Numbered from the stretch's first letter, positions 5,046 to 22,573 are shown. The stretch: 64,000 nt of DNA from Planctomycetota bacterium (GCA_040264055.1 JBDQJC010000001.1:11845-75844); one strand, 5' to 3'. Numbers and translations are program-made. The notes: generated by a model from the letters alone, not told the origin.

Positions 5046-5067
5046 TCAGACCTAGGTACAAACGAAG

Positions 5068-5107: not shown

Positions 5108-5116
5108 CAGTCTGGA

Positions 5117-6891: not shown

Positions 6892-7638
6892 ATGCAGCTC
6901 CCCGCGCCCGACACTTGGTACAACCACCTCGGGTACTTCGTTTTCGCGATCGAAGACGAATCACATTGGACAAGGTGGGGATATGGGCTGAGCGAGTTCC
7001 TTCCGAGTTGGATCACCCGGGTTCTCCACGGCGCGGTGTTGCTTTGTGTCGGCGTGCTTGCGTTCGTGGGGGTTCGTCTCCCATGGCTGGTGCCTCCGCT
7101 CGCCCGGTTGACTGGTGCTGTGGGTCTGCTTGCTAGTGCGGCGATCGTTCTCGGGGTCACGGGCTGGCCAAGCTATGTCTGTTTCTATTCGTGGCCATTG
7201 GTCGGCGGGTGCTTTCTCATGATTTGGCTGACGAGGCCAGCTCCGGGGCGACGCACCCAGTGGTTCCGAACCGCGATGCTGCCGGTGTTGGTGCTGTTGA
7301 GTCCGGACATGATTGTGCTCACCGTCGACCCGCCGGAGTTGTTCCTCATCGCGTCCCCCATGCTTCCGGTGCAACTGTTGAGTTTGGCGGCAGTCATTTG
7401 GATTCCGCCACTTGAGCCAAACAAGTTGCGAATCCTCGCTCGTCGGATGATCCCGCTGCTGCTGCTTCCCGTGCTTGGGGTGTACTTGGTGAACTGGGCC
7501 GGATTCCTCGATCAGGACTCCCCGCATTGGGTGGTCCTTTTTGTTCCGTTGTCAATTCCTGCGTCTTGGATCTGGGTGGCGGCGTGTCTTCGTCAGAGGC
7601 GGAAGCCGACTGACCCGGTCCCCCTCCATGCCGCGTGA
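6892..7638 (+). CDS. Polytopic membrane protein of unknown function (paralog 1)
   Basis: 248 aa. Short soluble N-terminus (WYNHLGYFVF...TRWGYG) followed by about 6 hydrophobic helices. Paralogous to the next gene (shared ...RPA...R...DP... segment). Confidence 0.7.
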   Translation: MQLPAPDTWYNHLGYFVFAIEDESHWTRWGYGLSEFLPSWITRVLHGAVLLCVGVLAFVGVRLPWLVPPLARLTGAVGLLASAAIVLGVTGWPSYVCFYSWPLVGGCFLMIWLTRPAPGRRTQWFRTAMLPVLVLLSPDMIVLTVDPPELFLIASPMLPVQLLSLAAVIWIPPLEPNKLRILARRMIPLLLLPVLGVYLVNWAGFLDQDSPHWVVLFVPLSIPASWIWVAACLRQRRKPTDPVPLHAA

Positions 7639-8498
7639 GCGCAGCGCGATTTCAACAATCAGGCGAAGGCCCCACCACGCCGACGCCCTACCCGGACGGC
7701 TTGATCACGCATCATGCCGACGGCACGATCACCTATCCCGATGCTTATACCGGCGAGCGCTTCGTGCAGCCGGGCGACGAGTGGTATCACGCGTTTGGAT
7801 TCCACTACGACGCGAGCCACGACTTCCCGGATTACGCAATGTGGGAATGGTGGGGGATCGGCTGGCCCAAGGCCGAGCCGCCTCAAGCCCTTGTCGATCT
7901 GCTGTTTCTCTGCTTTGTCTATGGCTCGCTCCTCTTGCCCATTCTCTGTTGGGCGCGAAGTAATCGACTTCAACCCGCAGCAAGCTTGCTTGCCTGGGTG
8001 GGAGTTTGTTTCTCGGCAGTGCTGATCTGGTTTGACGATGGCGATATGTACTTTGTGGACCTCGCTCGGTTCACGATGCTCTGCGCGGCCAGCTTGCTGT
8101 TTCTCGCCAGGCCGGCGCGATCGGTTCTGCGAGGGGTGTTGCGCTACGTGGCATTCAGCGCGCTGCTCTGTTTTCCAGGCGTGGTACTTGCGGTCATCGA
8201 TCCAGGCACTTGGATGAGTAATAAAATCCTTCTCAGTTTCGGTGCCTGGGCGGCACTTCTCCCGCTTGCAGTTCTCCCGGAAGTGAACTGCAGCAAGCAA
8301 GAGCTCGCCGCGTTTCGCCGTCGCGGCCTTCTTGTCGCGAGCATCCTCCCGGTGTCTTCCTACTACCTTGAGAACGCATGGGGAGTGCGTGCCTCTCAGG
8401 CTTTCCTCCCGTGGGTGATCATCGCGCTTGGCTTGGCAGCATGTGTCATGATCTTTCGCAACCGCAGCGGTCAATCGGAGCCACCGCTTGCAAGCTGA
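7635..8498 (+). CDS. Polytopic membrane protein of unknown function (paralog 2)
   Basis: GTG 7635 overlaps the upstream stop (GTGA). The N-terminus WYHAFGFHYD...WEWWGIG parallels paralog 1. About 6 TM helices. LLFLARPARSVLRGVLRYVAFSALLCFPGVVLAVIDP aligns with FLMIWLTRPAPGRRTQWFRTAMLPVLVLLSPDMIVLTVDP. Confidence 0.7.
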   Translation: MSAARFQQSGEGPTTPTPYPDGLITHHADGTITYPDAYTGERFVQPGDEWYHAFGFHYDASHDFPDYAMWEWWGIGWPKAEPPQALVDLLFLCFVYGSLLLPILCWARSNRLQPAASLLAWVGVCFSAVLIWFDDGDMYFVDLARFTMLCAASLLFLARPARSVLRGVLRYVAFSALLCFPGVVLAVIDPGTWMSNKILLSFGAWAALLPLAVLPEVNCSKQELAAFRRRGLLVASILPVSSYYLENAWGVRASQAFLPWVIIALGLAACVMIFRNRSGQSEPPLAS

Positions 8499-8729: not shown

Positions 8730-9647
8730 ATGGCCGCGACCGATCTGAAATGTGAGCTTTCCTGGTCGGCGAGTCGAGCCAAGGAGTTCGAGCGCTGCAA
8801 GCGGGAATACTGGTATTCGCGCTACGCCTCATGGGGTTGGTGGACCGAACGCCCGCGCGGCGAAAAATTCCAAACCATGGTCCACAAGAACTTGACCTCG
8901 CTGCCGGCTTTCACTGGCGATGTCATCCACCGCGCGATCGAACGCTGGTTTGAACTCAAGCGGGCAGGCTCGGTCATGAATGCGGCCGAGCTGATGGAAG
9001 AAGCCGTCAACCTGTTTCGCATGGGATGGCGTCAATCGTCGACCGATGCCTGGCAAGAACGGCCGAACAAGTCGACACACCTCTTTGAGCATCACTACAA
9101 GTTCGACATTAAGGCCGAGCGCACCGCGCACTCGCGGAAGCTGATCGAGGTCGCGACGAAGTTTTTCTGCGAGTCACCGCAGCTCGCGCCGGTGCGTGAT
9201 GTTCCAGCTGAAGATTGGTTGTCGGTCGAAACGCTCGACACCTATCAGTTCCTCGGCACCAAAGTCTATGCGGTGCCCGACTTCGCCTATCGCGTCGACG
9301 AGAAGGTGCACATCTGGGATTGGAAGACTGGCAAGCCGCGCGAAGACGACATCTTTCAGCTGCATACCTATGCGCTCTATGCCTGCGAGAAGTGGCAGAC
9401 AGACCCGGAGGACATCATCCTGTACGCCGCGTATCTGGGCGAAGAGAACGTACAAACCATCCAGGTTGAAATCGAGAAACTTTCCGAAGCACAAGACCGC
9501 ATGTCGATGTCGCTGCGCGAGATGATGGATGTGCACTACGACCCCGACGTCGACGATTTGATGATGCAGAACTGGCCGGCAAGCGGCGCGCCCGACGGCT
9601 GTCGTTTCTGTCGCTACAAAGGGATGTGCCCCGATGCTGCTGTTTAG
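8730..9647 (+). CDS. PD-(D/E)XK nuclease, Cas4/AddB-like with 4-Cys Fe-S signature
   Basis: Motifs: AVPDFAYRVDEKVHIWDWKTGK (D...D/ExK) and QLHTYALYA (QhxxY). One N-terminal Cys (FERCKREYWY) plus the C-terminal CRFCRYKGMC (CX2CX5C), as in Cas4/AddB-type iron-sulfur nucleases. Confidence 0.8.
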   Translation: MAATDLKCELSWSASRAKEFERCKREYWYSRYASWGWWTERPRGEKFQTMVHKNLTSLPAFTGDVIHRAIERWFELKRAGSVMNAAELMEEAVNLFRMGWRQSSTDAWQERPNKSTHLFEHHYKFDIKAERTAHSRKLIEVATKFFCESPQLAPVRDVPAEDWLSVETLDTYQFLGTKVYAVPDFAYRVDEKVHIWDWKTGKPREDDIFQLHTYALYACEKWQTDPEDIILYAAYLGEENVQTIQVEIEKLSEAQDRMSMSLREMMDVHYDPDVDDLMMQNWPASGAPDGCRFCRYKGMCPDAAV

Positions 9648-10935
9648 CCAAGAGCCCGAAGTCTTGACGGTCGAAGTGCAAGAACCGTCGATGTGGGATC
9701 GCATCACCGAGTTCACGCAAGACTTCACCGGCGGTGACTTCCTCGCCAACTTGGTGATCCTGATCGTAGCGGCAATCTTGGCCCATGTTGTGGCGCGGCG
9801 CGTGCTCGTCGGTGCGACCCGCAAGCTCGCGAAGAAGACCGAAGTCAAGTGGGACGACCTGCTGATCAAGCACAAGGTCTTCACGCGCTTGGCTGGTTTG
9901 GCGCCGGCTCTCCTGGTTTATGGGTTAGCCGGGCTGTTCGACCCCGAGCTGGCAGCAGTAACCCAGCGACTTGCCCTGGCGTACATGATCCTGGTCGCCG
10001 GGCGAGTCGTCAGCGCTTTGCTCGATGCCATTCGTGCGGTGCTCGAGTCAGACGAAACGACCGACACGACGGCGATGCGCAGCTACTTCCAGCTCGGCAA
10101 GATCTTGCTGTGGTTGGTCGCGGGCATCTTGTTTGTCGCCCACTTGCTCGGCAAAGACCCGACCAGCTTGTTGACTGGCTTGGGCGCGGTCATGACCATT
10201 CTGCTGTTGGTCTTCAAGGATTCTATCCTTGGCTTTGTCGCCAGCATTCAATTGACGCGCGACGATCTGGTACGCAAGGGCGACTGGATTGAAGTGCCGG
10301 CCTACGGCGCCGATGGCGATGTGATGGAAGTCACGCTGCACGCAGTCAAAGTGCAGAACTGGGATAAGACCATCGTCACCGTGCCGACGCCAGCGATGGT
10401 CACCGGTGGCTTCAAGAACTGGCGCGGTATGTCGGAATCGGGCGGACGACGCATCAAGCGCTCGGTTTCGATCGATATGAACACGGTGCGCTTTCTTGAC
10501 GAGGGGATGCTCGCGCGCCTAAAGAAGGTGCAGTACATCCAGGCTTACCTCGACGAGAAAGTTGCCGAGGTGCAAAGCTGGAACCAAGAAAAGAAAGTCG
10601 ATGAAAGCAGCTTGGTGAACGGCCGGCGCTTGACCAACTTGGGTACTTTCCGGGCGTACGTGAAGGCGTACCTAGAGAACCATCCGCAAATCAGTGAGTC
10701 AATGACCTTCTTGGTGCGGCAACTGGCAAGCGGGCCCGAAGGCGTGCCGATCGAGATTTATGTCTTCTCCAAGGAGCAACGCTGGGTGCACTACGAAGGC
10801 ATCATGGGCGACATCTTCGATCACCTGTTTGCGGTCTTGCCCGAGTTCGGTTTGCGGGTCTACCAAAAGCCAAGCGGCGCTGACTTACGAGAAGTCAACG
10901 CCGCTCAGGGTGCGCTCGCGGCGCCTACTGAATGA
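9634..10935 (+). CDS. Mechanosensitive ion channel family protein (MscS/YbdG-like)
   Basis: N-terminal TM helices, then the MscS beta-domain signature GDWIEVPAYGADGDVMEVTLHAVKVQNWDKTIVTVPT. An alternative start is ATG 9691. Confidence 0.85.
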   Translation: MLLFSQEPEVLTVEVQEPSMWDRITEFTQDFTGGDFLANLVILIVAAILAHVVARRVLVGATRKLAKKTEVKWDDLLIKHKVFTRLAGLAPALLVYGLAGLFDPELAAVTQRLALAYMILVAGRVVSALLDAIRAVLESDETTDTTAMRSYFQLGKILLWLVAGILFVAHLLGKDPTSLLTGLGAVMTILLLVFKDSILGFVASIQLTRDDLVRKGDWIEVPAYGADGDVMEVTLHAVKVQNWDKTIVTVPTPAMVTGGFKNWRGMSESGGRRIKRSVSIDMNTVRFLDEGMLARLKKVQYIQAYLDEKVAEVQSWNQEKKVDESSLVNGRRLTNLGTFRAYVKAYLENHPQISESMTFLVRQLASGPEGVPIEIYVFSKEQRWVHYEGIMGDIFDHLFAVLPEFGLRVYQKPSGADLREVNAAQGALAAPTE

Positions 10936-11968
10936 CCCGCATCAAGCCGTTCGACAAGCGGCCGCTGCCGGCGTCATAGGTTTGCATCCAAATCGAAGTG
11001 CCGCTCGTGCCACTCGGGACCGGCACGCTCAAGCGTCCGCCGCCGTTGTAGGTGGCAATGGTATTCGGCAAGCGTCGAATCGGCTGACTCAAGCTGACCA
11101 CGCCAATCGCGGTATTGCTTGGGCCCGCGCCGGCGAGTGAATAGGCCGTCAAGATCGGCCGATCTGCAGTCGCGCCCGAGAAACGGAAGACCGCAGGCGT
11201 ACCAGCTTGCATGGTGTTCACGTCCACTTCGAACACTGAGTCGAAGCTGCCCGATCCAAAGTTTTGGCCGACCACCACGCACCAAACGCCGACTGCGTCA
11301 TAACCATCGACGGTTTCGCCCGCAGGCAAATCGAAAGTGAGGGTCGCGTTGTTGTAGGCGGTGCCAAACAGGTCCGGGCTGACGCGCAAACCGTTCGGGA
11401 TCGAGGCGTTCGTGTCCTCTTCGGCCAAGAAGACATAGACCTCGAAGCCACCCCCGTCGTAATCGAATTCATCGAGTCGAATGGTGTTGTGGTCAACAAT
11501 CGTGACGATGCCATCGACGCCATGCCCTTTCGTGATCAGGTCGGCTTGCCATCCCGTGCGCGGATGCTCAAACGAGCCCGAGCCGAAGTTGGCATTGGCC
11601 GCGACGCACCAAACGGAAACTGCTTTGTAGTCCTCGGTGGTTTCACCGGCCGGCAGATCCATCATCAGCGAGGCGTTAACGTAAGGCGCTCCCACCAAGT
11701 CCGGTCCAACCGAAAGGCCGTTCGTGAAGGCGGCTTGGGTGTCGGCGGTGCCCAGGTAGATGCGGACATCAATGCCCTGGCCGTCGTAGTAGAAGTTGTC
11801 GATGCGAATCGTGTCGCTGTCGACCACGGTGACGACACCGCGCACGCCATGGGCCAAGGTAGAAAGCTCAGCGTGCCAGCCGGACCGGTCGGTTTGAGCT
11901 GGCGCAGCTCCTGCGAGCGCCAAGGCGCCAAGGAGAGCGAGGGGACGGAGTTTCATCCAGGTGAACAT
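10925..11968 (-). CDS. Secreted protein with two DM13 domains and shared C-terminal module
   Basis: Signal peptide ...LALAGAAPAQ. Two internal repeats (HGVRGVVTVVDSDTIRIDNFYYDGQGIDVRIYLG and HGVDGIVTIVDHNTIRLDEFDYDGGGFEVYVFLA), each ending ...WCV..N.NFGSGSF, typical of DM13. The tail is shared with four other proteins. Confidence 0.8.
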   Translation of the reverse strand: MFTWMKLRPLALLGALALAGAAPAQTDRSGWHAELSTLAHGVRGVVTVVDSDTIRIDNFYYDGQGIDVRIYLGTADTQAAFTNGLSVGPDLVGAPYVNASLMMDLPAGETTEDYKAVSVWCVAANANFGSGSFEHPRTGWQADLITKGHGVDGIVTIVDHNTIRLDEFDYDGGGFEVYVFLAEEDTNASIPNGLRVSPDLFGTAYNNATLTFDLPAGETVDGYDAVGVWCVVVGQNFGSGSFDSVFEVDVNTMQAGTPAVFRFSGATADRPILTAYSLAGAGPSNTAIGVVSLSQPIRRLPNTIATYNGGGRLSVPVPSGTSGTSIWMQTYDAGSGRLSNGLMRVIQ

Positions 11969-12034: not shown

Positions 12035-12961
12035 CTATTCAGGAAGATACAGCGGCGCGGTCGATCCGGCAGGAACCCGCGGCAGGACCATGACCTGACT
12101 TGAAGCGAGCAAACGCTCGACACTTTGCATCCAAAGGCGCTGCATGCCGACTGCGCGATGAGTCTGCATATTGGTGGCGAGCGCGCGGAAGGCGTCGGCC
12201 CAGCCTTGGGCTTCGCTGACGATCACCGTGTAATCACTTTCGGCTTGCTGCACCAGGCGGTTGGCTTCGGCGCGGGCGAAGGGGAGGGCGGTGGCGCGCG
12301 CGCCCTGCGCTTCCGAAAGCTGCTGATCTTTGTACGCCTTGGCGCTGGTGACTTCGTTGAACGCGTTCTGCACTTCCGGGGGCGGGCCAACTTCAGTCAA
12401 GTTGAAGGAGGTCAGCGTAATGCCCAAGCGGAACTCTCTGGCCTGCGCCTGCACGCGCTCCAAGACCTCGTTGCTGAGTTGCGTTTTGCCGCTCGACAGC
12501 ACTTCATCGATTCCCATCGAAGCGATGCTCTCGGTCATCGCCGCTTCGGCAAGGCGTCGCAAAACCATGTCGCGCATCAAGCCGCCGCTCGGTTCGGACA
12601 TGCCGTACAAGTACTCGACCGGGTCCGTGATCGTGTAGTACAGCGTGACCTCCATCTTTGCGATGTTGGTATCACCGGTGAGCCACTCGCGACGGGTCGG
12701 ATCGAGGTTCTCGGCGCCGAGTTGCTCGAGGTAGGTGAAGCCAACCGGCATCGTGCGGCTGACGCCGGTGGCAATCTTCTCGATGCTTTCGAAAGGCCAG
12801 GGAAGATTCAGATGAAAGCCAGGGCCCACCGTGCGCTGTACCGAACCGAAGCGATGCACCAGGCCGGTCTGATCCTGCTTGACCGTTTGGAAAGCGGTGC
12901 TCAGCCAGTACAGAACGATGGCAGCCAAGGCTGCGCGGCGAAGCCAGGAACTATTCACCAC
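12035..12961 (-). CDS. SPFH/band-7 protein, HflK-like
   Basis: N-terminal TM helix, then VKQDQTGLVHRFGSVQRTVGPGFHLNLPWPFESIEKI, the SPFH core, and an Ala/Gln-rich coiled-coil tail. Overlaps the upstream gene by 11 nt. Confidence 0.85.
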   Translation of the reverse strand: MVNSSWLRRAALAAIVLYWLSTAFQTVKQDQTGLVHRFGSVQRTVGPGFHLNLPWPFESIEKIATGVSRTMPVGFTYLEQLGAENLDPTRREWLTGDTNIAKMEVTLYYTITDPVEYLYGMSEPSGGLMRDMVLRRLAEAAMTESIASMGIDEVLSSGKTQLSNEVLERVQAQAREFRLGITLTSFNLTEVGPPPEVQNAFNEVTSAKAYKDQQLSEAQGARATALPFARAEANRLVQQAESDYTVIVSEAQGWADAFRALATNMQTHRAVGMQRLWMQSVERLLASSQVMVLPRVPAGSTAPLYLPE

Positions 12962-13847
12962 CCTCGACTTGGCTCGGAGTGGGGAAGTCGCTGAGCACCT
13001 TCAACAAAGGATGGTCGGCGGGAAGCACGATCGTGCTGTCATCACCAAAGGCCGACTCGGCGGCTTCAAGCGAGCGCAGGAAAGCGTAGAGCTCGGGATC
13101 AGCGTTGTAGGCCTCGGCGTAAATGCGCGCCGACTCGGCGCGCGCGGCACCACGAAGTTCGGTGGCTTTGCGCCGCGCCGCTGCAAGCAGCTCGGCTTCT
13201 TCGCGATCGGTCATCGCCTTGATCTCGTCGTACTCTTCCTTGCCCTGAGCGCGGAAGCCGGCCGAGATCGTTTGGCGTTCGGTCTCCATGCGGCTGAATA
13301 CCGCGCGCTTGTTCTGATCCGGGAAGTTCAAACGCTTGACCTGTGCCGAATGAATCGTCAACCCCATCGTCGCTTCGGCACGACTCGCAGCTGCCGCGCG
13401 CAAATCATCGGCGATCAGCGCCAGCCCACTCTTTTCGCCCTCGGTGCTGACAATCGACTCGAAGTCGTAGGAAGAGAGGACATCGCCGACTACCGAGCGA
13501 ACGATCTCCGACAAGCGCGCTTCGGCACCAGCGCGCGAGCCTACCGCGCGGTAGTAAAGCAGCGGGTCAGCGACCGACCAAACCAAGAAGCTGTCGACCA
13601 ATAGGTTCTTCTTGTCTTCGGTCAGGTAGGTGCCCGGCTCGGGGTCGAGCAAGTGCATGCGCATATCGATTGGGACCACCGTGTCGATCGGGCTGGGCAG
13701 TTTGAAGTGAAGCCCAGCTTGTTCGACCACGGTGACCGGTTTGCCAAAGCGCATGACCACGCCATAACTGCCTTCGGCAACCTGGAAGCTCGACAACATG
13801 GCGAGCAGGGAAGCAAGGATGACCAGAGGGATCCAGCGTCTCTTCAT
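12951..13847 (-). CDS. SPFH/band-7 protein, HflC-like
   Basis: N-terminal TM helix, then VAEGSYGVVMRFGKPVTVVEQAGLHFKLPSPIDTV and a charged coiled-coil region (EAELLAAARRKATELRGAARAESARIYAEAY). Confidence 0.85.
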   Translation of the reverse strand: MKRRWIPLVILASLLAMLSSFQVAEGSYGVVMRFGKPVTVVEQAGLHFKLPSPIDTVVPIDMRMHLLDPEPGTYLTEDKKNLLVDSFLVWSVADPLLYYRAVGSRAGAEARLSEIVRSVVGDVLSSYDFESIVSTEGEKSGLALIADDLRAAAASRAEATMGLTIHSAQVKRLNFPDQNKRAVFSRMETERQTISAGFRAQGKEEYDEIKAMTDREEAELLAAARRKATELRGAARAESARIYAEAYNADPELYAFLRSLEAAESAFGDDSTIVLPADHPLLKVLSDFPTPSQVEGGE

Positions 13848-13850
13848 AAC

Positions 13851-16067
13851 TTATTCCTCGTCGCGTCCACCTGACGCGCGTCCATCGAACAAAGGTGCGT
13901 TGCGCGATCCATTCGGCGGCAGCGGGGTCACGATGCGGCCCGGATCAGCGACGGCAATCACGCGACTCTGTTGCAGCACGCGCACCATCGATTCCAGTCG
14001 TAGGCGCAACTGATGCGCGGGTAGGTTTTCTTTCAAGGCGTCGCGCAGCGCAAGGAAGGCAGCGGCGTCGCCAGTTGCTTGTTGCAACAGGGCATTCGCT
14101 TCTGCAGCGGCTTCCTGTTCCAAGGTAGTTGCTTGGGCCCGCGCCGCGGACTCGCGCCGCACACGGTATTCCTCGGCTTGCTTGATGTAGCGTTGACGAT
14201 CCTCGAGTGCCGAGGCCACATCGCGATAGGCGTAGTGCACACTCGGGTCGGCCGAAGCATGGACCTCGTCCAAGTTGATCTGCACCACATCGATGCCCGC
14301 GCCGAGCGCGTCGAGCCCGGCTTGCATCGTCGCGCGCGCTTCGTTTTGCACGATGCTGCGGTCGCCGATCAAGAGTTCATCGGCCATGCGGGCCAAACCC
14401 GAAGCGCGCAAGGCGCTTTCGCCGTACGCCAAGACCAAGTCTTGAGGTGACTCGGTCTCGAATAGCCAGGCTTGCGCGTCGCGCACGCGGTAATGAATCG
14501 AGACCTCGAAACGCAGTAGCGTCTCATCGCGGGTCAAGACCTCGGTCGAAGCTTCCAAACTTGCGCGGCGCGCGCGCGCTTCTTGCCCCGCGCGGGCGTC
14601 GGCTTGGGCTAACTTGGTGATTGCAGCCAGGCTGAGCGATTCGCCCGGGCCTTGAATGTTGGTTGCCCGCAGTGTTGCGTTCGAAACCGTGACCAGGCGC
14701 GAGATCGGTGCTGGCGCATGCCAAACGGCGCCGGGCTCTTCGAGCGTGGCGACCACTTTGCCAAAGCGCACGACGAAGCCAGTTTCACCGGGCTTGAGCG
14801 GCGAGACCGCAGTGCCCAGGTACAGACCCAGCACGAACAGCAAGATCAGAATCTTGATCGGCTTGGCGCCCAGGTCGAGGCCGACCGGAAGGAACAACTT
14901 GCGCAGCTTGCCGCCCCAGTTGGCAACCAAACCCAAACGATGCGCGTGCCAAATCAGCAGAGCGAGCAGAATCGCGCCGGTCGCCTGCGCGAACAGGGAG
15001 GTGTGTTCCGCACTCATGGGGCCCACTGCTGTGGTGGGAGAAGTCCCGAGCATGCCGTAGAGCCAGTTCACGCCAAAACCAAGCGCGAGCGAACAGACTG
15101 CGATGCTGCCGAGATAAGCGTAAAGCACGCGGCGCCCGAGGAAGCCACGCACGACGGCGATGGTTGCGATGTTGGTGGCCGGCCCGGCGAGCAACAAGAT
15201 CAGCGCACTGCCAGGGTCGAGGCCCTTGGCGATCAATGCCGCTGCGACCGGTGTGCTGGCGGTTGCGCAAATGTAGAGCGGCACGCCAATGAAGAGCATG
15301 GCCGTCATCGACATCCAACCGTTCGGCAATACGTTGCCGAAGAAATCGTCAGGCACGATCAAAGTGATGAAGCCCGAGACGATGAAGCCGAGGATGAACC
15401 ACGGCGTCAGGTCGGCCATCAGCGTGACGAAGGCGTAGTGCCAAGCTTCCTTGGCCTTCTCCTTCCCGGTGGTCTTCTCGTCGACTTCGGGTTCGTGGCA
15501 GCACGATGCTGCGTCGTCGTCACTCTTGCTCTCGCCATCCACTTCGGCCGCGTCGTCGCTTGCGTGGGCGTGTGCATGGCCGTGATCATGCGCAGCATCC
15601 GATTCGACCAAGCGCCTCTGAAGATCTTCTTCGGGCTGATCGTCCCAGCCGCGCTTGACGATGCGGTTGACCAAAGTGCCAGAGACGAAGGCCGTCAGCA
15701 GTGCCGATAAAGGCCGGACCACGGTCATGATCGGATCCATTAAGGCATAGGTCACCCCGATCGAATCGACTCCGGTTTCCGGTGTCGAGATCAAGAAGGA
15801 GGTCGTCGCGCCCTTGCTCGCGCCGCTGCGCTTGAGCGACATCGCCGTGGGGATGACCGAGCACGAACATAGCGGAATCGGTACCCCGAACAGGGAGGCC
15901 AAGAAAACCGAACGCGTGTTGTCTTGGCCCAGGTTGCGATAGATCCAGCGTTCAGGGATCGCGACCTTGAGCGCGCCGGCAATCAAGAATCCGGCGAGCA
16001 GGTAGGGGCCCGACTCGACCAGAATGACCCAGATCGCGCCTAGCCATGCCAGTGCGAATTCGGTCAT
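13851..16067 (-). CDS. Fusion protein: PF03773-type metal permease (ArsP / SO_0444 Cu/Zn efflux family) + C-terminal HflK-like SPFH domain
   Basis: ATG 16067 overlaps the ZIP stop (ATGA). The N-terminal half has the family hallmark GVPIPLCSCSVIPTAMSLKRSGASKGATTSFLISTPETGVDSI and a His-rich loop HDHGHAHAHASDD. The C-terminal ~330 aa read GETGFVVRFGKVVATLEEPGAVWHAPAPISRLVTV ... VHYAYRDVASALEDRQRYIKQAEEY (SPFH + coiled coil). Confidence 0.8.
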   Translation of the reverse strand: MTEFALAWLGAIWVILVESGPYLLAGFLIAGALKVAIPERWIYRNLGQDNTRSVFLASLFGVPIPLCSCSVIPTAMSLKRSGASKGATTSFLISTPETGVDSIGVTYALMDPIMTVVRPLSALLTAFVSGTLVNRIVKRGWDDQPEEDLQRRLVESDAAHDHGHAHAHASDDAAEVDGESKSDDDAASCCHEPEVDEKTTGKEKAKEAWHYAFVTLMADLTPWFILGFIVSGFITLIVPDDFFGNVLPNGWMSMTAMLFIGVPLYICATASTPVAAALIAKGLDPGSALILLLAGPATNIATIAVVRGFLGRRVLYAYLGSIAVCSLALGFGVNWLYGMLGTSPTTAVGPMSAEHTSLFAQATGAILLALLIWHAHRLGLVANWGGKLRKLFLPVGLDLGAKPIKILILLFVLGLYLGTAVSPLKPGETGFVVRFGKVVATLEEPGAVWHAPAPISRLVTVSNATLRATNIQGPGESLSLAAITKLAQADARAGQEARARRASLEASTEVLTRDETLLRFEVSIHYRVRDAQAWLFETESPQDLVLAYGESALRASGLARMADELLIGDRSIVQNEARATMQAGLDALGAGIDVVQINLDEVHASADPSVHYAYRDVASALEDRQRYIKQAEEYRVRRESAARAQATTLEQEAAAEANALLQQATGDAAAFLALRDALKENLPAHQLRLRLESMVRVLQQSRVIAVADPGRIVTPLPPNGSRNAPLFDGRASGGRDEE

Positions 16068-16993
16068 ATGCCAGCGCTCCCGAACCAACCCATCATGACG
16101 ATCCCAACGACTAACAAGCCGCTGCGTAACGCAATTGCTTCGCGGCGGTGGAAGACTTCCGGCAGCAGCTCACACAGGCTGACATAGAGGAAGGTGCCGG
16201 CGGCCAGCGCTGCGGCGATGCCGATGCCGCGTTCGTCAAGCACGTCGATTAAGCTATGGCCGAGCAACATGCCGGCCGGCGTGACCAGGCTAAACGCGAT
16301 CAACATGCCGACAATGCGGCGGCGTGATTGCTTGGCGAGCAGGAAGACGGTCGCCAAAGAGAAGCCTTCAAAACTCTTGTGAGCGCAGATGGCCAAGAAG
16401 ATCGCAGCGCCAATCGCGTGGTCCATGCCCGCCGCGGCGAGCGAGACGCCAGCTGTGAAGGCGTGAATGATCAAGCCGACCAATGCGGCATAGCCAACCG
16501 CGCGGTGCCGCGACAGATCGCCTTCGCGGTGCGCGGAGTCATCGCCATGTTCATGCGGCTTATGACTATGGCCATGATTGTGGTCATGATCGTGCGCGGG
16601 AAGCAGCAGCGCTTCGATCAGATAAACCGCAAGCACTCCGACCAGCACAAAGATCCAAGGCAAGGGGTCGCCATGGCTGTGGCCAAAGTGCGTATCGGCT
16701 TCGGCGGCGTGATCGTGGCCGTCGTGATCGGCGTGTTCTTCGCCCGGCCCGTGGTCGTGTCCGGCGTGATCATCGACTTCAGCCGATCCATCCACGCCGG
16801 CAACCACTGCGGTCGGGTCATCAAGGCTGAGCTGTGCGACCGAAGGCAGCAAATGCAGGAAGACCGCGCCGAGGAAAATTCCGGTCGCCAGCGCCAATGC
16901 GGTGTGCAGGGCGCGGTCAGTCCAACGCAGGAACAGCGGCACAAGGCCGCCGCCCAAGGAGATCGCGAAGAGGGTGAGGGCTTCCAAGTTCAA
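16064..16993 (-). CDS. ZIP family metal (Zn/Fe) transporter with two His-rich loops
   Basis: 8-TM ZIP-like layout with HAFTAGVSLA and HKSFEGFSLA motifs. Loops are HAGHDHGPGEEHADHDGHDHAAEADTHFGHSHG and HDHDHNHGHSHKPHEHGDD. Confidence 0.85.
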   Translation of the reverse strand: MNLEALTLFAISLGGGLVPLFLRWTDRALHTALALATGIFLGAVFLHLLPSVAQLSLDDPTAVVAGVDGSAEVDDHAGHDHGPGEEHADHDGHDHAAEADTHFGHSHGDPLPWIFVLVGVLAVYLIEALLLPAHDHDHNHGHSHKPHEHGDDSAHREGDLSRHRAVGYAALVGLIIHAFTAGVSLAAAGMDHAIGAAIFLAICAHKSFEGFSLATVFLLAKQSRRRIVGMLIAFSLVTPAGMLLGHSLIDVLDERGIGIAAALAAGTFLYVSLCELLPEVFHRREAIALRSGLLVVGIVMMGWFGSAGI

Positions 16994-17018
16994 AGACGAG
17001 GATCGAAGCCCACGGATT

Positions 17019-18587
17019 CTACCCGTCCGAGGGCGCCTCGGTGCCCTGGCTCACCGGCTTCGCGCCGGCTGGAACCGCAGCCACCGCGTTTCCAATCAGC
17101 ACCTTCCATTCTTTGGTGTTGAGGTCCACCTTCAGGATGCGGTGATGGTTGGTGTCGGCGATGTAGAGCGTGTCGCCCTCGGTGTCGATTCCGCCCGGCT
17201 CCCACATCGTCAAGACATCGGGCCGCATGTCTTCCTCGCCGTTGCCCAGCAGAGTGGTGCATTCCTTCGTGGCCGGATCGAGCAGCTTGATCTTGTTGTT
17301 ATAGGTGTCCGCAACGAGCAGCTTGCCCTTCCAGACGGCAAGGCCAAGCGGGTGCTGGAGCAGCACTTCATCGGTGCCCTTGCCGTCCCGGTCGCCAAAG
17401 CGGAACAGGTTGGTTCCGACCAAGGTCTCGACGATATCGGAGGCCAGATCGATCGAGCGCACCGCACTGACCTCAGAATCGGCGAAGTAGAGCTTGCGGC
17501 CGAGTTGGGCAAAGCCGCTGGGCTGGGCCAGTCGGGCTAGTTCCGCCGGGCCATCGACGATGTTCTCGTATCCGCTGCCGGCAAGTGGGCTGACCCGGCC
17601 CGAGCGCGTGTTGTAGGTCCAAAGCTGGTGGCTGCCCGCCATCGCGATGTGCAGTTGCTCGCCGTCGAGTTCGAGCGCCCACGGCGAGTTCAGCGGGGTG
17701 TCGAGACCTGGCCCGGCTTCGGGGAGGGGCCGCGCCTGCACACCCAATTCGCCGGCCAAGGTCGTGAACGTACCGGTTTTCAGGTCGAGCTTGCGGAGCA
17801 GATGATTGTCGGTATCGGCGACATAGAGAGTGTCGCCAGCGAGCGCCATGCCGTGCGGGTGATGCAGGGGTGGGTCGCTGGGCTTGAACTCGCGTAGGAT
17901 CTTGCCGGTCTCGGAATTGAGTTCGAGCAAGCGGTCGTTCGCGCTATCGGCAACGTAGAGCTTCTCACCAGCGGCCAGCACTTTGGCGGGGTAGAAAAGT
18001 TCCGTTGCAGGGGCAACCTCCTTCTTGAGCTTGAGCGGTCCTTCGGCGAGCGCGCCGTTCTTCTTGCCTTCGTCGAGTGCCTGACGAATCGCAAGGCGCA
18101 GGGTTTCGAGGTGCCCTTCGCCCGAGGCCATGCCAATAATGTTGCCGTCCGAGCCAATCAAAGCCAGCGTCGGCCAAGCCCGCACGGTGTATGCCTGCCA
18201 GATCTTGTGATCGGCATCGACCACGACCGGGTGCTGAATCTTGTAGCGCAACACCGCCTGGCGGATGTTTTTCATCTCGCCTTCCTGCGGGAACTTGTTG
18301 CTGTGCACGCCGATCACCAGGAAAGGCTGGTCGGCAAACTCGGCCTCCAGCTTCTCCAGGTCGGGGATGATGTGAATGCAGTTGATACAGCAATAAGTCC
18401 AGAAGTCGAGCAGCACGACCTGGCCCTTCAGATCCTCTTTGAATGAGGTCAGCGGCCGGTCAGTATTCAGCCATTCGGTTCCGGTCAGATCGGGGGCGCG
18501 CATATCGGGCTGCTGTGCCGGCAGGCAGGCCGGCGCGAGGGCAAGGAGGAGGGCGGGAAGCAAGGGTTTGGCGAATCGGGCGAGCAT
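17019..18587 (-). CDS. Secreted thioredoxin-like (redoxin) domain fused to NHL-repeat beta-propeller (NHLRC2-like)
   Basis: Signal peptide. Redoxin segment VVLLDFWTYCCINCIHIIPDLEKLE (CxxC). Repeated NHL motifs follow (LYVADSANDRLLEL, LYVADTDNHLLRKL, LLVADTYNNKIKLL, LYIADTNHHRILKV). It ends 25 nt upstream of the ZIP start. Confidence 0.85.
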   Translation of the reverse strand: MLARFAKPLLPALLLALAPACLPAQQPDMRAPDLTGTEWLNTDRPLTSFKEDLKGQVVLLDFWTYCCINCIHIIPDLEKLEAEFADQPFLVIGVHSNKFPQEGEMKNIRQAVLRYKIQHPVVVDADHKIWQAYTVRAWPTLALIGSDGNIIGMASGEGHLETLRLAIRQALDEGKKNGALAEGPLKLKKEVAPATELFYPAKVLAAGEKLYVADSANDRLLELNSETGKILREFKPSDPPLHHPHGMALAGDTLYVADTDNHLLRKLDLKTGTFTTLAGELGVQARPLPEAGPGLDTPLNSPWALELDGEQLHIAMAGSHQLWTYNTRSGRVSPLAGSGYENIVDGPAELARLAQPSGFAQLGRKLYFADSEVSAVRSIDLASDIVETLVGTNLFRFGDRDGKGTDEVLLQHPLGLAVWKGKLLVADTYNNKIKLLDPATKECTTLLGNGEEDMRPDVLTMWEPGGIDTEGDTLYIADTNHHRILKVDLNTKEWKVLIGNAVAAVPAGAKPVSQGTEAPSDG

Positions 18588-18642
18588 GCCATCCTATTCG
18601 TAGGACATCCGCCCTTGGCTGTTCACCTTTTGATCACAAGTC

Positions 18643-19983
18643 TTGTTCGCCATCCTCACGCTCAGCCTGCTCTCGATGCAGGATCCACAGGCCGAAAAGC
18701 CCAATATCTTGCTGATCCTGGCCGACGATCAAGGCAGCGTCGATGTTGGTGCATGGGGCACGACCGATCTTCAAACGCCTGCTCTCGATCGGCTCGCCGC
18801 CCGGGGCACGCGGTTTACCCAGTTCTATGCGGCGGCCCCGGTTTGCTCACCGTCACGGGCGGCTTTTCTGAGTGGCCTGACCCCGCAGAACGCGGGCCTG
18901 ATGGGGAATGTCGACCCAAACAACCCGGAAAGCGGGCTGCCGCCTGAGACGGTGACGATTGCTGAGCATTTTCATGCGCATGGTTATGCGACCGCGCAGA
19001 TCGGAAAGTGGCACCTAGGGCATAGCAGCGATCGTCAGCCGACCGGGCAGGGCTTCGACTTCGGCTTCGGACACCTGGGCGGTTGTATCGACAACTACTC
19101 CCACTTCTTCTACTGGAACGGCCCGAACCGGCACGATTTGGTGCGCAATGGGGTCGAGGAATACCACCCAGGCGACTTCTTCCCCGATCTCTGCCTGGAC
19201 GAGGCCATGGATTGGATTCGCGGCCGCGATGAGCAGCCCTGGTTGATGTACTTCGCGCTGAATCTTCCGCACTACCCATACCAGGGCGACCCGAAGTGGT
19301 TGGACCGGTATTCCGGTATGGCGATGCCGCGTCGCGAATACGCCGCCTTCGTGTCGACCATGGACGAGCGCATCGGTGCGCTGCTGGCCTTCTTGGAAGA
19401 GGAAGGCATCCGCGACGAAACCTTGGTGGTCTTCCAATCCGACCACGGGCACTCGACCGAACAACGCGCCTACTACGGCGGCGGCAGCGCCGGCCCGCAC
19501 CGTGGCGCCAAGTTCAGCTTGCTCGAAGGCGGGATCCGGGTGCCAGCGATTCTGTCCGGCCCGGGAGTCGCTGAAGGCGAAGTGCGCGATCAGTTGGCGA
19601 CTGCCTGCGATTGGTTCCCGACTCTGTGCACCTTGGCCGGCATTCCGCAGCCCCAACACAAGCTCGACGGCCAAGATCTCGCCGAGGTGCTCGCCAGCGC
19701 CGAGGAATCGACTCCGCACAAACACTTCTTCTGGAAGAACGGCGGGCAGTGGGCCTTGCGGTCCGGCAAGTGGAAGCTGATCTGGAATGCCAACGACACC
19801 AGCGACGGCCGCAACTGGCAACGCGAACCCGGCCTCCGTCTTTATGACCTCGAAGCCGACCCCGGCGAGCGCACCGACCTCGCCGCGGACAACCGCAGAG
19901 AAGTGAATCGCCTGCGCAAGCTCGCGCAAAAGTGGGATGCCGAGATCCCCTTCGAACTTGCCCCTGTGGAGAAGTCCGACTAA
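18643..19983 (+). CDS. Cys-type sulfatase (arylsulfatase family)
   Basis: Signal peptide. ILLILADDQG and the sulfatase signature PVCSPSRAAFLSGL (C-x-P-x-R), QIGKWHLG, FQSDHG. Confidence 0.92.
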   Translation: MFAILTLSLLSMQDPQAEKPNILLILADDQGSVDVGAWGTTDLQTPALDRLAARGTRFTQFYAAAPVCSPSRAAFLSGLTPQNAGLMGNVDPNNPESGLPPETVTIAEHFHAHGYATAQIGKWHLGHSSDRQPTGQGFDFGFGHLGGCIDNYSHFFYWNGPNRHDLVRNGVEEYHPGDFFPDLCLDEAMDWIRGRDEQPWLMYFALNLPHYPYQGDPKWLDRYSGMAMPRREYAAFVSTMDERIGALLAFLEEEGIRDETLVVFQSDHGHSTEQRAYYGGGSAGPHRGAKFSLLEGGIRVPAILSGPGVAEGEVRDQLATACDWFPTLCTLAGIPQPQHKLDGQDLAEVLASAEESTPHKHFFWKNGGQWALRSGKWKLIWNANDTSDGRNWQREPGLRLYDLEADPGERTDLAADNRREVNRLRKLAQKWDAEIPFELAPVEKSD

Positions 19984-20002: not shown

Positions 20003-21784
20003 CTACCTGACCGCCGGCATCAAGGTCAAGTGTTCTGGCATCCACGGCTCGCCGTTCAGACTGAGGCGAAGCTCAAGAGCATGCTGGCCGGCGCGGAAGA
20101 CGAAGGCTTCGTCAACTTGGATGTCGAGGCGTTGCTCGGCATCGGCGTGGGTACCATCGAGCGCACAAACGAGTTCCTCATCAAGGAGGATTTCGACGCG
20201 ATAGGGGCCGGACTTCTTGGGTGCGTTGCGAGTCGTCAGGCGGAACCCGAGAGCCTGATCCTTTGTTGATTCCATGTGCCACGCACCACTGGCGCCATAG
20301 CCGCCGCCCGACTTGATGCGCCAGTCATTGCGGTTGAGTTCTTGCATCGGCTCAGCCTCAAAGTCGATGACGATGGCGGGTGGCTGGCCAACCCCTTCGT
20401 AGTCACTGGCCTCTTCGAACCACGCAAGGTATTCGGCCAGGTATTCGGCCACGATCTCGGGGTGCTCGGCGGCGATGTCATTTTGCTCGAGCGGATCGTT
20501 CGCCAAATCGTAGAGCGCAAGCGGCGCGGGGTTGTCTGGGAACTCTTCGCGGCCGAATCCCGAGTTGCGCAGTAGTTTGTAGCGCTGCCCGATCGTTGCG
20601 AAGTGGTGCGTGGCAATGCGTTGATCGCCGCGGTGCGCCTGGATGTGCAACTTGCGCTCGGGCCAATCTGTTGCGGTGTTTGTCAGCAAGGGCCAAATGC
20701 TCTTGCCGTCCAACTCGACCTGTGCCTTCGGGCGCACACCGGTTGCTTCGACGATGGTCGGCCAAACATCCATATGCGCAGCGATCTGATCGTGCACCAA
20801 GGCCGGTACCCTGCCCGGCCAACGAACGAAGAAGGGCGAGCGAATGCCTCCTTCCCATACATTCGACTTCATGCCGCGCATCTCACCGACATAACGAATG
20901 CTGTAAGGCCCATTGTCGTGCAGGTAAATCACGATGGTGTTGTCGGCGACACCCATTTCATCCAGCGCGTCGAGCATGCGTCCGACGTTTTGATCGATGT
21001 TGTCGATCATCGCGTAGCCACGGGCGACGCGGTCGGCCTGCTCGGGGTCAGGCACGACTTCCGATAGGTCCTTCGCTTTGTACTTCTGATAGAGATCTTC
21101 GGGGATGTCATGCCAAGGTCCGTGCGGCGTATTGGTTGCGAGGTAGCTAAAGAAGGGCCGACCTTCCTCAACCGCTTTGCGCATGAAGCCGATCGCGTGA
21201 TCGGTGTAGACGTCCATGCAGAAGCCTTCGGTCTGCACCTCCACGCCATTGTGAAACAGGATCGCGTCGGTGTAGCGCCGATCGTTGTCCAGCGCGTCGG
21301 CCGGTTGCGCCAAACCGCCGCCGCGGTGATGCAGCGCATCCTCAAATCCTTGGTCGATCGGCCGTAGCGGATAGTTGTCGCCTAAGTGCCACTTGCCCGA
21401 GAGCGCAGTGGCATACCCGGCATCGCGCAGAACCTCGGCGATCGTCAGCTCGTTGGTGTTCATCATCGCGCGCCCGCGGTAGGTGTCGATCGCCTGAGTG
21501 CGCAAGCTGTTGCGCCCGGTCATCAAGGCCGCGCGCGTCGGCGTGCAGACCGGGCTGACGTAGAAGCGATGCATGCTGCCGCTTTCCGAGGCCAGCTGGT
21601 CAATGCGCGGCGTCTCGATCACGCTGTTCCCCGTCCAACCCAAGTCGCCATAACCGGCGTCATCGGTCATGATTAAGAGGACATTGGGCCGCTCTAGCGA
21701 ATCTTGCCCATCCTTCGCCGCTTGGCATGCGGGAAGGTTTAGGATGACGGCGGCGAAGAAGCTGGTCTTGGAGGCGCTCGGCAC
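20003..21784 (-). CDS. Cys-type sulfatase (arylsulfatase family) with C-terminal extra domain
   Basis: VLLIMTDDAGYGDLG, PVCTPTRAALMTGR, SGKWHLGD, YLHDNGP. An additional ~130 aa C-terminal domain is present. Confidence 0.92.
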   Translation of the reverse strand: MPSASKTSFFAAVILNLPACQAAKDGQDSLERPNVLLIMTDDAGYGDLGWTGNSVIETPRIDQLASESGSMHRFYVSPVCTPTRAALMTGRNSLRTQAIDTYRGRAMMNTNELTIAEVLRDAGYATALSGKWHLGDNYPLRPIDQGFEDALHHRGGGLAQPADALDNDRRYTDAILFHNGVEVQTEGFCMDVYTDHAIGFMRKAVEEGRPFFSYLATNTPHGPWHDIPEDLYQKYKAKDLSEVVPDPEQADRVARGYAMIDNIDQNVGRMLDALDEMGVADNTIVIYLHDNGPYSIRYVGEMRGMKSNVWEGGIRSPFFVRWPGRVPALVHDQIAAHMDVWPTIVEATGVRPKAQVELDGKSIWPLLTNTATDWPERKLHIQAHRGDQRIATHHFATIGQRYKLLRNSGFGREEFPDNPAPLALYDLANDPLEQNDIAAEHPEIVAEYLAEYLAWFEEASDYEGVGQPPAIVIDFEAEPMQELNRNDWRIKSGGGYGASGAWHMESTKDQALGFRLTTRNAPKKSGPYRVEILLDEELVCALDGTHADAEQRLDIQVDEAFVFRAGQHALELRLSLNGEPWMPEHLTLMPAVR

Positions 21785-21793
21785 CCGGCGATT

Positions 21794-22573
21794 CTAGAAG
21801 CTGCCCAGGCCGATCTTGCCGAGTTGCGCGAGGGTCGTGGTTGCGCCAAGCAGCAGGCGGAAGTCTTCCGCATCGCCACCAAGCCCGAAGAGCAATCCTG
21901 CCTCCAGGGCAAGGTGCTCATGAGCTTGCCAGGACAGTCCTGCACCGAAATAGCTGCCCGAGAGATCGGCGGGTGCCCCCAGCACGCCAATGCCTTCGAC
22001 GTAAGTGCCTAGCTCTGGCTGCAACAAGCGGGCCCACTGCACGGCCGCAATATGCTCGGCCAACGTGGAGTCGCCGCCGGTCGCTTCGGCAAGCAGGAGT
22101 TCGTAATAACCAGTCCAAGTGTGCGCGCCATAAGACTGCGCAAGCGCGGTCGCGGCGTACAAATCGGAGGCGCCTTCACCGCGCGTATGCCCAGCTTCGC
22201 CAGCGGCAAGATGAGTACCCAGCTCGATGCTCCACGCGGGCGTCGAGCCATGCGCTTCGACTAATTGGTTCTTCAGCGCAAAGGACACATCGCCAGTGCG
22301 CCGTGCGTCGGGGCCTGGACGCCGAATCACCGCATACGGAGACCAGGCAATGGAGAGCTCGTTGTGATGTGGAAGTCCAAGGACCAAACCGACACCTGTC
22401 GCAATCGTGTCGCCTGGATCCTGGTCGTAATCAAACTCAAACTCCAAGTCGCCTGCCGCGGCCACACTTGGGCCACCGCCGGTTTGGGCGAAGTGAGCGC
22501 TGCCAATCGGAGAGCCGTCACCTTGGGCGAAGGCGCAGCTGCCCAAGGCAAGAAGAATGAAGGTCGATCGCAT
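21794..22573 (-). CDS. Putative outer-membrane beta-barrel protein (paralog of 25422-26234)
   Basis: ATG 22573 shares 1 nt with the upstream TAA. Signal peptide MRSTFILLALGSCAFAQ. Alternating amphipathic strands and a C-terminal ...GLGSF (terminal Phe). Clear paralogy to the 25422-26234 product (GDV..., SD(L/F)(Y/F)..., AEH..., D(F/Y)(R/Q)LLLG). Confidence 0.6.
   Translation of the reverse strand: MRSTFILLALGSCAFAQGDGSPIGSAHFAQTGGGPSVAAAGDLEFEFDYDQDPGDTIATGVGLVLGLPHHNELSIAWSPYAVIRRPGPDARRTGDVSFALKNQLVEAHGSTPAWSIELGTHLAAGEAGHTRGEGASDLYAATALAQSYGAHTWTGYYELLLAEATGGDSTLAEHIAAVQWARLLQPELGTYVEGIGVLGAPADLSGSYFGAGLSWQAHEHLALEAGLLFGLGGDAEDFRLLLGATTTLAQLGKIGLGSF

Follow-up and report, generated by a model that had tools for sequence, protein, structure and literature searches.

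A widely conserved fusion of an SO_0444-type metal permease to an HflK-like SPFH protein, and a possible HflK/C-type assembly tethered to its transporter

Introduction

What does it mean when a bacterium makes a metal transporter and a subunit of a membrane cage as one polypeptide? The question is raised by a locus of a Planctomycetota bacterium (GCA_040264055.1 JBDQJC010000001.1:11845-75844), analysed within a stretch of 64,000 nucleotides (nt) that is called the window below, with positions counted from its first letter. On the minus strand of the window, at 12035-18587, a gene encoding a permease fused to an HflK-like SPFH protein (the fusion gene) is preceded by the gene of a ZIP-type metal transporter and followed by those of an HflC-like and a second, free HflK-like SPFH protein. 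The effect of SPFH cages (HflK/C, prohibitin, stomatin, flotillin, erlin) on the membrane proteins that they enclose is a long-standing question, in part because the clients are usually many, transient and non-covalently held.

The fusion is real, ancient and widely conserved. The reading that we favour, with a probability of roughly 55%, is that the locus is a module for zinc/copper homeostasis, with an HflK/C-type assembly of three paralogues that would be tethered to its transporter.

Results

The locus

An earlier note on this DNA had described five genes here, and all five open reading frames (ORFs), tightly packed on the minus strand from 18587 to 12035, can be read in the sequence and its translations, with base composition even throughout the region.

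17019 to 18587, minus strand: secreted thioredoxin-NHL protein (Pfam Thioredoxin_8 + NHL)
16064 to 16993, minus strand: ZIP transporter (PF02535, 123.5 bits)
13851 to 16067, minus strand: fusion gene, whole (PF03773 + PF01145)
14931 to 16067, minus strand: fusion gene, permease half, residues 1-379 (NF033936, 409 bits)
14808 to 14930, minus strand: fusion gene, junction, residues 380-420 (helices 380-395 and 402-418 in the AlphaFold2 (AF2) model)
13851 to 14807, minus strand: fusion gene, HflK-like half, residues 421-738 and stop codon (Band_7 47.6 bits, TIGR01933 136.8 bits)
12951 to 13847, minus strand: HflC-like SPFH protein (TIGR01932, 170.5 bits)
12035 to 12961, minus strand: free HflK-like SPFH protein (TIGR01933, 151.9 bits)

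The thioredoxin-NHL and ZIP genes are 25 nt apart. The ZIP gene overlaps the fusion gene by 4 nt (ATGA) and is translationally coupled to it, an overlap seen also in an independent Joint Genome Institute gene call on an identical contig. Only 3 nt separate the fusion gene from the HflC-like gene, which in turn overlaps the HflK-like gene by 11 nt.

The fusion in other genomes

A search of 5.8 billion proteins gave more than 120 best matches, with identity down to about 40%, that carry PF03773 and PF01145; the sole match listed without both domains (P0015) scores for Band_7 on rescan. Public databases hold the fused proteins under automatic names ('HflK protein', 'YraQ/HflC', 'SO_0444 family Cu/Zn efflux transporter'). 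A triple fusion of ZIP, permease and SPFH domains, implied by the Pfam labels of one protein (P0030), was rejected, as the ZIP match is sub-threshold (25 bits versus 35) and lies over a His-rich loop.

For comparison of gene order, the best 80 loci were taken from a scan of one genome per GTDB species; ORF calling in these loci was naive and was cross-checked by real gene calls in five of them. The full-length fusion is present in 68 of the 80, spread over about ten phyla, and its hosts include Planctomycetota, Gemmatimonadota, Tectimicrobiota/Entotheonella, Eisenbacteria, Acidobacteriota, Omnitrophota, Myxococcales, Binatia and several proteobacterial metagenome-assembled genomes (MAGs). The closest GTDB relative of the locus is that of the Planctomycetota MAG NAT19, with 76% identity in the fusion protein. 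The cultured planctomycete Saltatorellus ferox Poly30 has a closed genome, in which independent gene calls give Zip, ArsP_1+Band_7, Band_7 and Band_7 in succession. When the junction alone (residues 340-470) was used as a phmmer query against 1.84 billion representatives, 43 matches were obtained, about 25 of which are full-length proteins of 680-753 residues with the junction at the identical position, a number that is a lower bound given the limited sensitivity of a single-sequence search. The fusion is an uninterrupted ORF in hundreds of independent assemblies, including that of a closed isolate genome. A frameshift or assembly error, which the earlier note had named as a refuting outcome and which was a fair worry only for a single MAG contig, is thereby rejected.

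Three SPFH paralogues of HflK/HflC type

The SPFH region of the fusion protein, which the earlier note had wished to see scored as band-7, lies above the PF01145 threshold (residues 432-640, 47.6 bits, cut-off 23.6), and the HflC-like protein passes the TIGR01932 cut-off (170.5 bits against 134.4). All three SPFH paralogues align full-length with E. coli HflK/HflC, i.e., over anchor helix, SPFH domain, coiled coil and C-terminal cap segment. In a neighbour-joining tree of 203 SPFH sequences with midpoint root three clean groups are seen: all 69 fused copies form one clade, the free HflK-like group contains E. coli HflK, and the HflC-like group has E. coli HflC as its sister. The assignment of the three genes to the HflK/HflC type, made in the earlier note, is upheld by these results together. 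Because the fused copies form one clade, the fusion arose a single time from an HflK-type gene, and the trio has stayed together since.

Searches of the PDB by sequence and by fold gave E. coli HflK chains from FtsH-HflK/C cages (7VHP, 7WI3, 9CZ2, 9PAW) as best matches of the HflK-like half. Relative to E. coli HflK, the fused SPFH domain has a helical insertion between beta-strands (residues 468-512, window positions 14532-14666), which is longest in the lineage of the window and variable in the family (majority-residue conservation 0.33); at this site the insertion of the free HflK-like protein is shorter. A difference in cap length between the fused and the free HflK-like protein, apparent in an alignment of the window proteins, fails across clades.

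The permease half

The permease is specifically a member of the SO_0444 family of Cu/Zn efflux transporters, since residues 20-379 pass the equivalog cut-off of NF033936 (409.1 bits against 300, profile positions 2-347 of 351); residues 22-338 match PF03773 (ArsP_1) at 165 bits (cut-off 32.3). The CSCSVIP motif and HDHGHAHAH loop by which it had been picked out are directly readable in the translation. Modelled alone by AF2 (predicted local distance difference test, pLDDT, 85.6; predicted template-modelling score 0.82), the permease folds as two inverted repeats, each consisting of a long and a broken transmembrane (TM) helix with a helix-break-helix hairpin between them, and of one more TM helix after these. 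The two re-entrant hairpins (residues 51-80 and 251-280) are both too short to span the membrane in the model. The first bears CSCS (residues 67-70) at its tip and the second YICATAS (residues 265-271), with Y265 and C267. In the alignment of homologues C67, S68, C69, S70 and C267 are invariant, and the cysteines are predicted to lie within the membrane; three invariant in-membrane cysteines would suit thiophilic metals. A His/acidic loop at residues 138-210 is predicted to be cytoplasmic. With Foldseek against the PDB the permease half gave no significant match, the best (E = 0.048) being a weak resemblance to hairpin-containing elevator carriers, and no member of the SO_0444 family has a solved structure.

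SO_0444 of Shewanella oneidensis is needed for growth under ZnSO4 or CuCl2 stress, a phenotype that was complemented (PMC3219624), and in Nitratiruptor a family member counted among the genes with the strongest induction by Cd and Cu (PMC10092412). The tolerance phenotype, by which the family was defined, is known only from the Shewanella protein. The permease half resembles SO_0444 (NF033936; ArsP_1/PF03773, with ArsP and SaoE as relatives) in the CSCS and Cys-containing hairpin motifs, in the His-rich cytoplasmic loop and in family score. The Shewanella protein, however, stands alone beside a ZntR-type regulator, whereas the permease described here is fused to an HflK-like protein and usually comes after a ZIP gene, and where a regulator occurs in loci with the fused module it is of SmtB/ArsR type instead of ZntR/MerR type.

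Junction and membrane topology

AF2 was run on the whole fusion protein with a 60-sequence alignment (mean pLDDT 80.9). Beyond the permease the model runs from TM9 (residues 358-377) through a linker helix (380-395) into TM10 (402-418), an additional TM helix that corresponds to the N-terminal anchor of HflK. Then follow the SPFH beta/alpha domain (421-604), a coiled-coil helix of about 90 residues (608-699) and the C-terminal tail/cap segment. The linker before TM10 is basic, predicted to be cytoplasmic, and carries a conserved PxGxD motif in which G396 is invariant and D398 is kept in at least 90% of the sequences. As its conservation equals that of the SPFH domain (0.49 versus 0.50), and given G396 and D398, the junction is not a loose tether.

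Because the hairpins would be too short for the membrane, eight membrane crossings are expected ahead of the SPFH domain. Over 60 homologues, the mean number of Lys and Arg in the loops predicted to be cytoplasmic is 4.1 (L1-2), 2.9 (L2-3), 1.8 (L7-8) and 5.0 (L9-10), against 0.4 for the N-terminus, 0 for L3-4, 0.1 for L5-6 and 0.6 for L8-9, which are predicted to be periplasmic. The pattern is self-consistent and would put the His/acidic loop in the cytoplasm, and the positive-inside statistics and the AF2 helix pattern jointly predict that the fused SPFH domain lies in the periplasm. The same orientation is expected of the HflC-like and free HflK-like proteins, since both have basic N-termini before a single TM helix (type II anchor). 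HflK/C proteins are oriented to the periplasm (PMC2636767).

Conserved gene neighbourhood

Neighbours in the 80 loci were labelled by calling ORFs and comparing them by phmmer with the window proteins. The synteny that the earlier note had proposed for comparison holds for the core: fusion, HflC-like and HflK-like genes directly follow each other on the same strand in 63 of the 65 fusion loci with enough downstream sequence. Of the two exceptions one is permuted (L053, 821-5026, HflC-HflK-fusion) and the other anomalous, with a gap of about 1 kb in place of HflC (L073, 6180-10552). ZIP lies immediately 5' of the fusion in 34/61 loci and immediately 3' of the trio in three. When the ORFs within 7 kb on each side of the 68 fusion loci were clustered, no recurrent neighbour besides ZIP was found, the remainder being lineage-local synteny or antisense-ORF noise; NfeD was absent from the recurrent neighbours and from Pfam-annotated neighbourhoods of four lineages.

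The permease appears unfused in 12 loci, nine of which retain a tightly coupled upstream ZIP gene and 11 of which have no SPFH gene within 10 kb. In the twelfth (L052, 3431-5140) a short HflK fragment comes directly after the permease ORF, which may point to a broken fusion or a pseudogene. One locus counted as unfused (L061) ends its contig right after the permease and may in truth be fused. Tightly coupled, unfused pairs of ZIP and SO_0444-type genes in SPFH-free surroundings are seen in other Planctomycetota (L055-L060, L063, L072, L074, L077, L080). These counts separate two modules, ZIP-permease being one and the SPFH trio, seen only with the fusion, the other. In a tree of the permeases, the unfused planctomycete sequences are nested in the fused clade in several places; as the tree is a neighbour-joining one with midpoint root and no bootstrap, the nesting is evidence of moderate strength. 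It suggests that the SPFH module was lost secondarily and repeatedly while ZIP-permease was retained and, because of such repeated loss, that the SPFH assembly would be modulatory and not required for the transporter.

ZIP transporter and metal

The ZIP protein passes PF02535 (123.5 bits, cut-off 35.1, profile positions 9-320 of 323), stays under the cut-off of the ZupT equivalog model (60 bits, cut-off 252), and its sequence matched no solved structure. The two long His-rich loops that the earlier note had ascribed to it are readable in the translation. One, rich in His and Asp, joins TM2 to TM3 and is predicted to lie in the periplasm; the other, rich in His, joins TM3 to TM4, with the cytoplasm as its predicted side.

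ArsR/SmtB-type (HTH_5) regulators adjoin the ZIP/permease genes in five loci.

L009, 8770 to 9093, co-directional: ArsR/SmtB regulator, Gemmatimonadota
L010, 573 to 896, co-directional: ArsR/SmtB regulator, Gemmatimonadota
L021, 5563 to 5994, divergent: ArsR/SmtB regulator, planctomycete, permease fused
L056, 8360 to 8893, divergent: ArsR/SmtB regulator, planctomycete, permease unfused
L063, 9133 to 9780, divergent: ArsR/SmtB regulator, planctomycete, permease unfused

All five carry D-x-H-x10-H-x2-E in the last helix, which we take to be the SmtB alpha5 zinc-site pattern (Asp104, His106, His117, Glu120). In some lineages ZIP is preceded by a regulator of a kind that lifts repression when zinc is in excess.

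A further link is given by DUF3299, which is ZrgE of the Zur-regulated Vibrio zinc-uptake system ZrgABCDE (PMC9817125). One locus (L086, 5423-7941) has an ABC-FtsX-DUF3299 trio (ZrgC/B/E-like) directly 5' of fusion-C-K on the same strand, and in nine more loci a DUF3299 ORF is found at a distance of 1.6-7 kb from the permease gene, eight of these loci being fused (5-7 kb) and one unfused (1.6 kb). The window itself holds a ZrgC/B/E-like trio on the plus strand (34131-36975), 18 kb from the module. L082 (18544-19368) belongs with these instances of a likeness between ABC_tran + MacB_PCD/FtsX + DUF3299 and ZrgC/ZrgB/ZrgE.

Taken together, the SO_0444 phenotype, the induction by Cd and Cu, the invariant cysteines, the SmtB-type regulators and the ZrgE-like neighbours point to zinc as the metal, with copper or cadmium also possible. 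In Planctomycetota and Gemmatimonadota, the pairing of ZIP with an SO_0444-type transporter may commonly serve as a unit of zinc homeostasis.

Transcription unit and accessory genes

Beyond the five genes, the following features bear on the transcription unit.

18588 to 18642, minus strand: intergenic region 5' of the first gene, divergent from a sulfatase gene
10925 to 11968, minus strand: secreted protein with two DM13 domains (PF10517 x2, 113 bits)
10870 to 10908, minus strand: terminator-like hairpin, 17-bp stem and T-rich tail (consensus scan only)

The gene set presumably has its promoter in 18588-18642, where a scan found no sigma-70-like promoter. A 14-bp near-palindrome, CTTGTGATCAAAAG, lies at 18627-18640 within this region and is not kept in the closest relatives. 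The DM13 gene begins 66 nt past the HflK-like gene with no terminator detected in between; given this spacing, and the hairpin after the DM13 gene, the transcript probably comprises six genes, the DM13 gene being the sixth and the hairpin probably the end of the unit. The hairpin sits within the 3' end of a convergent MscS-like gene (9634-10935), and this gene and the DM13 gene have 11 nt in common.

The 'five-gene operon' of the earlier note is not what is conserved. The five genes are packed as described, but conservation is limited to fusion-HflC-HflK, joined by ZIP in about half of the loci; the thioredoxin-NHL gene is lineage-specific, occurring 5' of ZIP in no relatives but the five closest (L001-L005), and the DM13 gene, the probable sixth, is present only in L001 among the relatives. 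Of the Zur/Fur/CsoR-type operator that the earlier note had proposed to look for in 18588-18642, no conserved example was found there: the five closest relatives have upstream regions that cannot be aligned, and the near-palindrome is unshared.

The thioredoxin-NHL protein, which had been recognised as a secreted one, has a signal peptide, a CINC motif, a thioredoxin-like domain and an NHL beta-propeller (Pfam Thioredoxin_8 and NHL repeats). It matches human NHLRC2 (PDB 6GC1, E = 3.5e-97) and the lumenal domain of Arabidopsis SOQ1 (7DJJ, E = 1.5e-96) over full length, but unlike these it is bacterial, secreted, and placed in a metal-transporter operon, outside the conserved core. The DM13 gene product bears two copies of this 'electron transfer' domain in one secreted protein.

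Scans of the window for Rfam families and for tRNA genes gave no match, so that a riboswitch or other RNA element is not supported. A reading as a defence system was rejected, none of the six operon proteins matching PADLOC models at E <= 1e-3.

Other genes of the window are noted here for completeness. Two sulfatase genes on the upstream side of the operon (18643-19983, plus strand; 20003-21784, minus strand) are typical of marine Planctomycetota-like genomes. On the downstream side a PD-(D/E)XK nuclease-family gene (8730-9647, plus strand) overlaps by 14 nt the start of the MscS-like channel gene (9634-10935, plus strand), an unusual pairing. ORFs of 248-601 residues without Pfam match lie at 4931-6736, 6892-7638, 7635-8498, 21794-22597 and 28982-29782, and a 950-residue ORF (22573-25425) has only a faint, sub-threshold match to the GH36 N-terminal domain. 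A di-haem cytochrome c peroxidase/MauG gene is found at 27233-28879 and a gene for a 760-residue LVIVD-repeat protein at 37033-39315.

Discussion

How might the module work? In the arrangement that we favour, the last helix of the permease would be joined, through the basic cytoplasmic linker and TM10, to a periplasmic SPFH/coiled-coil protein of HflK type. The fused HflK-like half would co-assemble with the HflC-like and free HflK-like proteins into a hetero-oligomer, shaped as a ring or dome, at the periplasmic side of the inner membrane, and the ring would confine the permease, and probably the coupled ZIP transporter too, to an SPFH-delimited patch of membrane. The assembly would modulate transport without being essential for it, acting on the stability, turnover, lateral organisation or activity of the transporter, and admixture of free HflK-like subunits to the fused ones may determine how many permeases a ring carries. 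The idea of the earlier note was that metal transporters are organised or gated by an SPFH cage; co-assembly, metal specificity, direction of transport and effect on the transporter are all matters that we infer. The idea agrees with all that was found here and gains strength from the predicted periplasmic topology, from the retention of all cage-forming segments, and from the structures in which stomatin domes enclose AQP1 and UT-B (PMC12407830; PDB 9ZD2).

Several observations weigh against this arrangement. Neither HflK-like protein reaches the curated TIGR01933 cut-off of 159.4 bits, the free one falling just short (151.9 bits) and the fused one lower (136.8 bits over residues 432-715), and for this reason both are called HflK-like here and not certified as HflK. 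The SPFH tree carries no bootstrap support, its root is a midpoint, and nearly all loci come from MAGs. The window contains no MerR or ArsR-type ORF and no metal regulator adjacent to the module, and the region upstream of the first gene has yielded no conserved operator. Finally, ZIP proteins normally carry metal into the cytoplasm. The translational coupling of such an importer-type protein to an efflux-type permease is not explained by a simple efflux model.

It is possible, if rather unlikely, that the system is centred on FtsH, i.e., that the HflC-like and free HflK-like proteins are ordinary FtsH modulators and that the fused HflK-like half docks the permease in an FtsH-HflK/C holoenzyme for conditional, metal-dependent or quality-control degradation. 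FtsH is the sole established partner of HflK/C, the closest solved structures are FtsH-HflK/C cages, the HflC-like protein passes its equivalog cut-off, and the free HflK-like protein groups with E. coli HflK. FtsH is also nearly universal and would need no operon linkage. Yet no FtsH-like ORF (Walker A + HExGH) was found within 10 kb on each side in any of the 80 loci (1.29 Mb in total), nor anywhere in the 64-kb window, and the statement of the earlier note that neither ftsH nor hflX is adjacent is true at this locus and in the 80 related ones. The SPFH trio, moreover, occurs only alongside the fusion. HflK/C (SPFH3) was absent from the three planctomycete genomes available for a survey in 2009 (Hinderhofer et al.; PMC2636767), an absence which counts against an FtsH-centred function and argues that HflK/C is not a housekeeping pair in Planctomycetota. 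The residues of the contact itself decide neither way. HflK 'Arg191', the one published HflK-FtsH contact that was found, has been cited as contacting FtsH (PMC12048511), but residue 191 of K-12 HflK (L081) is an alanine, its nearest arginines are R185 and R193, and the published residue cannot be mapped to K-12 numbering. The R193 column holds Arg in 53/69 fused proteins, which would fit an FtsH contact, and Thr in the free HflK-like ones; the R185 column is Arg for 53/64 free proteins and for 34/69 fused ones.

An extension of the favoured arrangement, which we think distinctly unlikely, is that three-paralogue assemblies form an FtsH-independent, closed periplasmic dome with the tethered permeases and ZIP in its floor, a dedicated nanocompartment that would serve as a buffered zinc/copper micro-reservoir or as a 'metallation chamber'. 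Exported metal would be held inside the dome, kept from diffusing off, and then re-imported or passed to periplasmic clients. If true, this would be the first SPFH cage in which client and physiological purpose are both genetically hard-wired.

Very unlikely, in our view, is a purely cis-regulatory role, in which the SPFH/coiled-coil half does no more than oligomerise or gate the permease, no large cage is formed, and the downstream SPFH genes are independent. The conserved junction (G396 and D398) suggests functional coupling of the two halves, and stomatin-type proteins regulate channels directly (background in PMC12407830). The three genes nevertheless keep a fixed order, overlapping or abutting, in 63/65 loci, and all three proteins retain the long coiled coil and the cap segment that build the HflK/C dome. 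HflK-type proteins of E. coli are obligate hetero-oligomers with HflC, which speaks against independence of the fused half.

It is also conceivable, at a very low probability, that the thioredoxin-NHL and DM13 proteins form the centre of a periplasmic redox or copper-maturation operon, in which thiol or electron-transfer chemistry would act on exported metalloproteins and the transporters and SPFH proteins would serve it. Both are secreted, redox-type proteins of the same probable transcript, but with one confined to the five closest relatives and the other to a single one, the core spans phyla without either. As for a frameshift, an assembly error or SPFH genes beside metal transporters by mere chance, the same unbroken ORF in so many independent assemblies, the closed S. 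ferox genome among them, the synteny kept over about ten phyla and the conservation of the junction segment itself leave this practically no probability.

The tethered three-paralogue assembly may be set beside three known systems. The E. coli HflK/HflC (SPFH3) cage around FtsH (7WI3, 7VHP, 9CZ2, 9PAW) shares the families, the adjacent K-type and C-type genes, the subunit architecture and the predicted periplasmic orientation. E. coli forms a 24-mer cage, whereas the likeness here is known from the fold of the monomers. There are three paralogues (fused K-type, C-type, K-type) instead of two, the cytoplasmic N-tail of the first K-type subunit is replaced by a nine-helix metal permease, linkage to hflX, hfq or ftsH is lacking, and the hosts are mainly Planctomycetota, Gemmatimonadota, Entotheonella, Acidobacteriota and similar groups. 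The closest functional analogy is the human stomatin dome over AQP1 or UT-B (PMC12407830, 9ZD2), likewise an SPFH oligomer over a membrane patch with a specific client. The stomatin client is bound non-covalently by a homo-oligomer on the cytoplasmic face of a eukaryotic membrane, while here the client is covalently fused, and the assembly would be a hetero-oligomer of three paralogues facing the periplasm. SPFH-NfeD operons (QmcA-YbbJ, PDB 8Z5G) also combine an SPFH scaffold with a dedicated membrane partner, but the NfeD partner is unfused, the SPFH1 proteins face the cytoplasm, and no recurrent NfeD-like neighbour was found here.

That the fusion is an undescribed architecture, as the earlier note had supposed, agrees with the searchable literature (on SO_0444, on SPFH/HflK with metal transporters and on SPFH neighbourhoods or fusions), in which no description was found, and with databases that hold the proteins under automatic names; neither a permease nor a transporter is mentioned in the survey of SPFH families in prokaryotes from 2009 (PMC2636767). 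SPFH cages that hold membrane-protein clients are known; new are the covalent tethering of a transporter client, the HflK/C set of three paralogues and the lack of linkage to FtsH. The fusion places one defined client on a cage subunit and has been kept with two partners over about ten phyla. The module is thereby a minimal, genetically defined system, with one client, a measurable activity (metal tolerance or transport), three subunits and a cultured host in S. ferox Poly30. It could tell what an SPFH assembly does to its client, be it gating, stabilisation, concentration or degradation, and whether FtsH is dispensable for an HflK/C-type cage. Nature may here have tied a membrane cage permanently to its transporter client.

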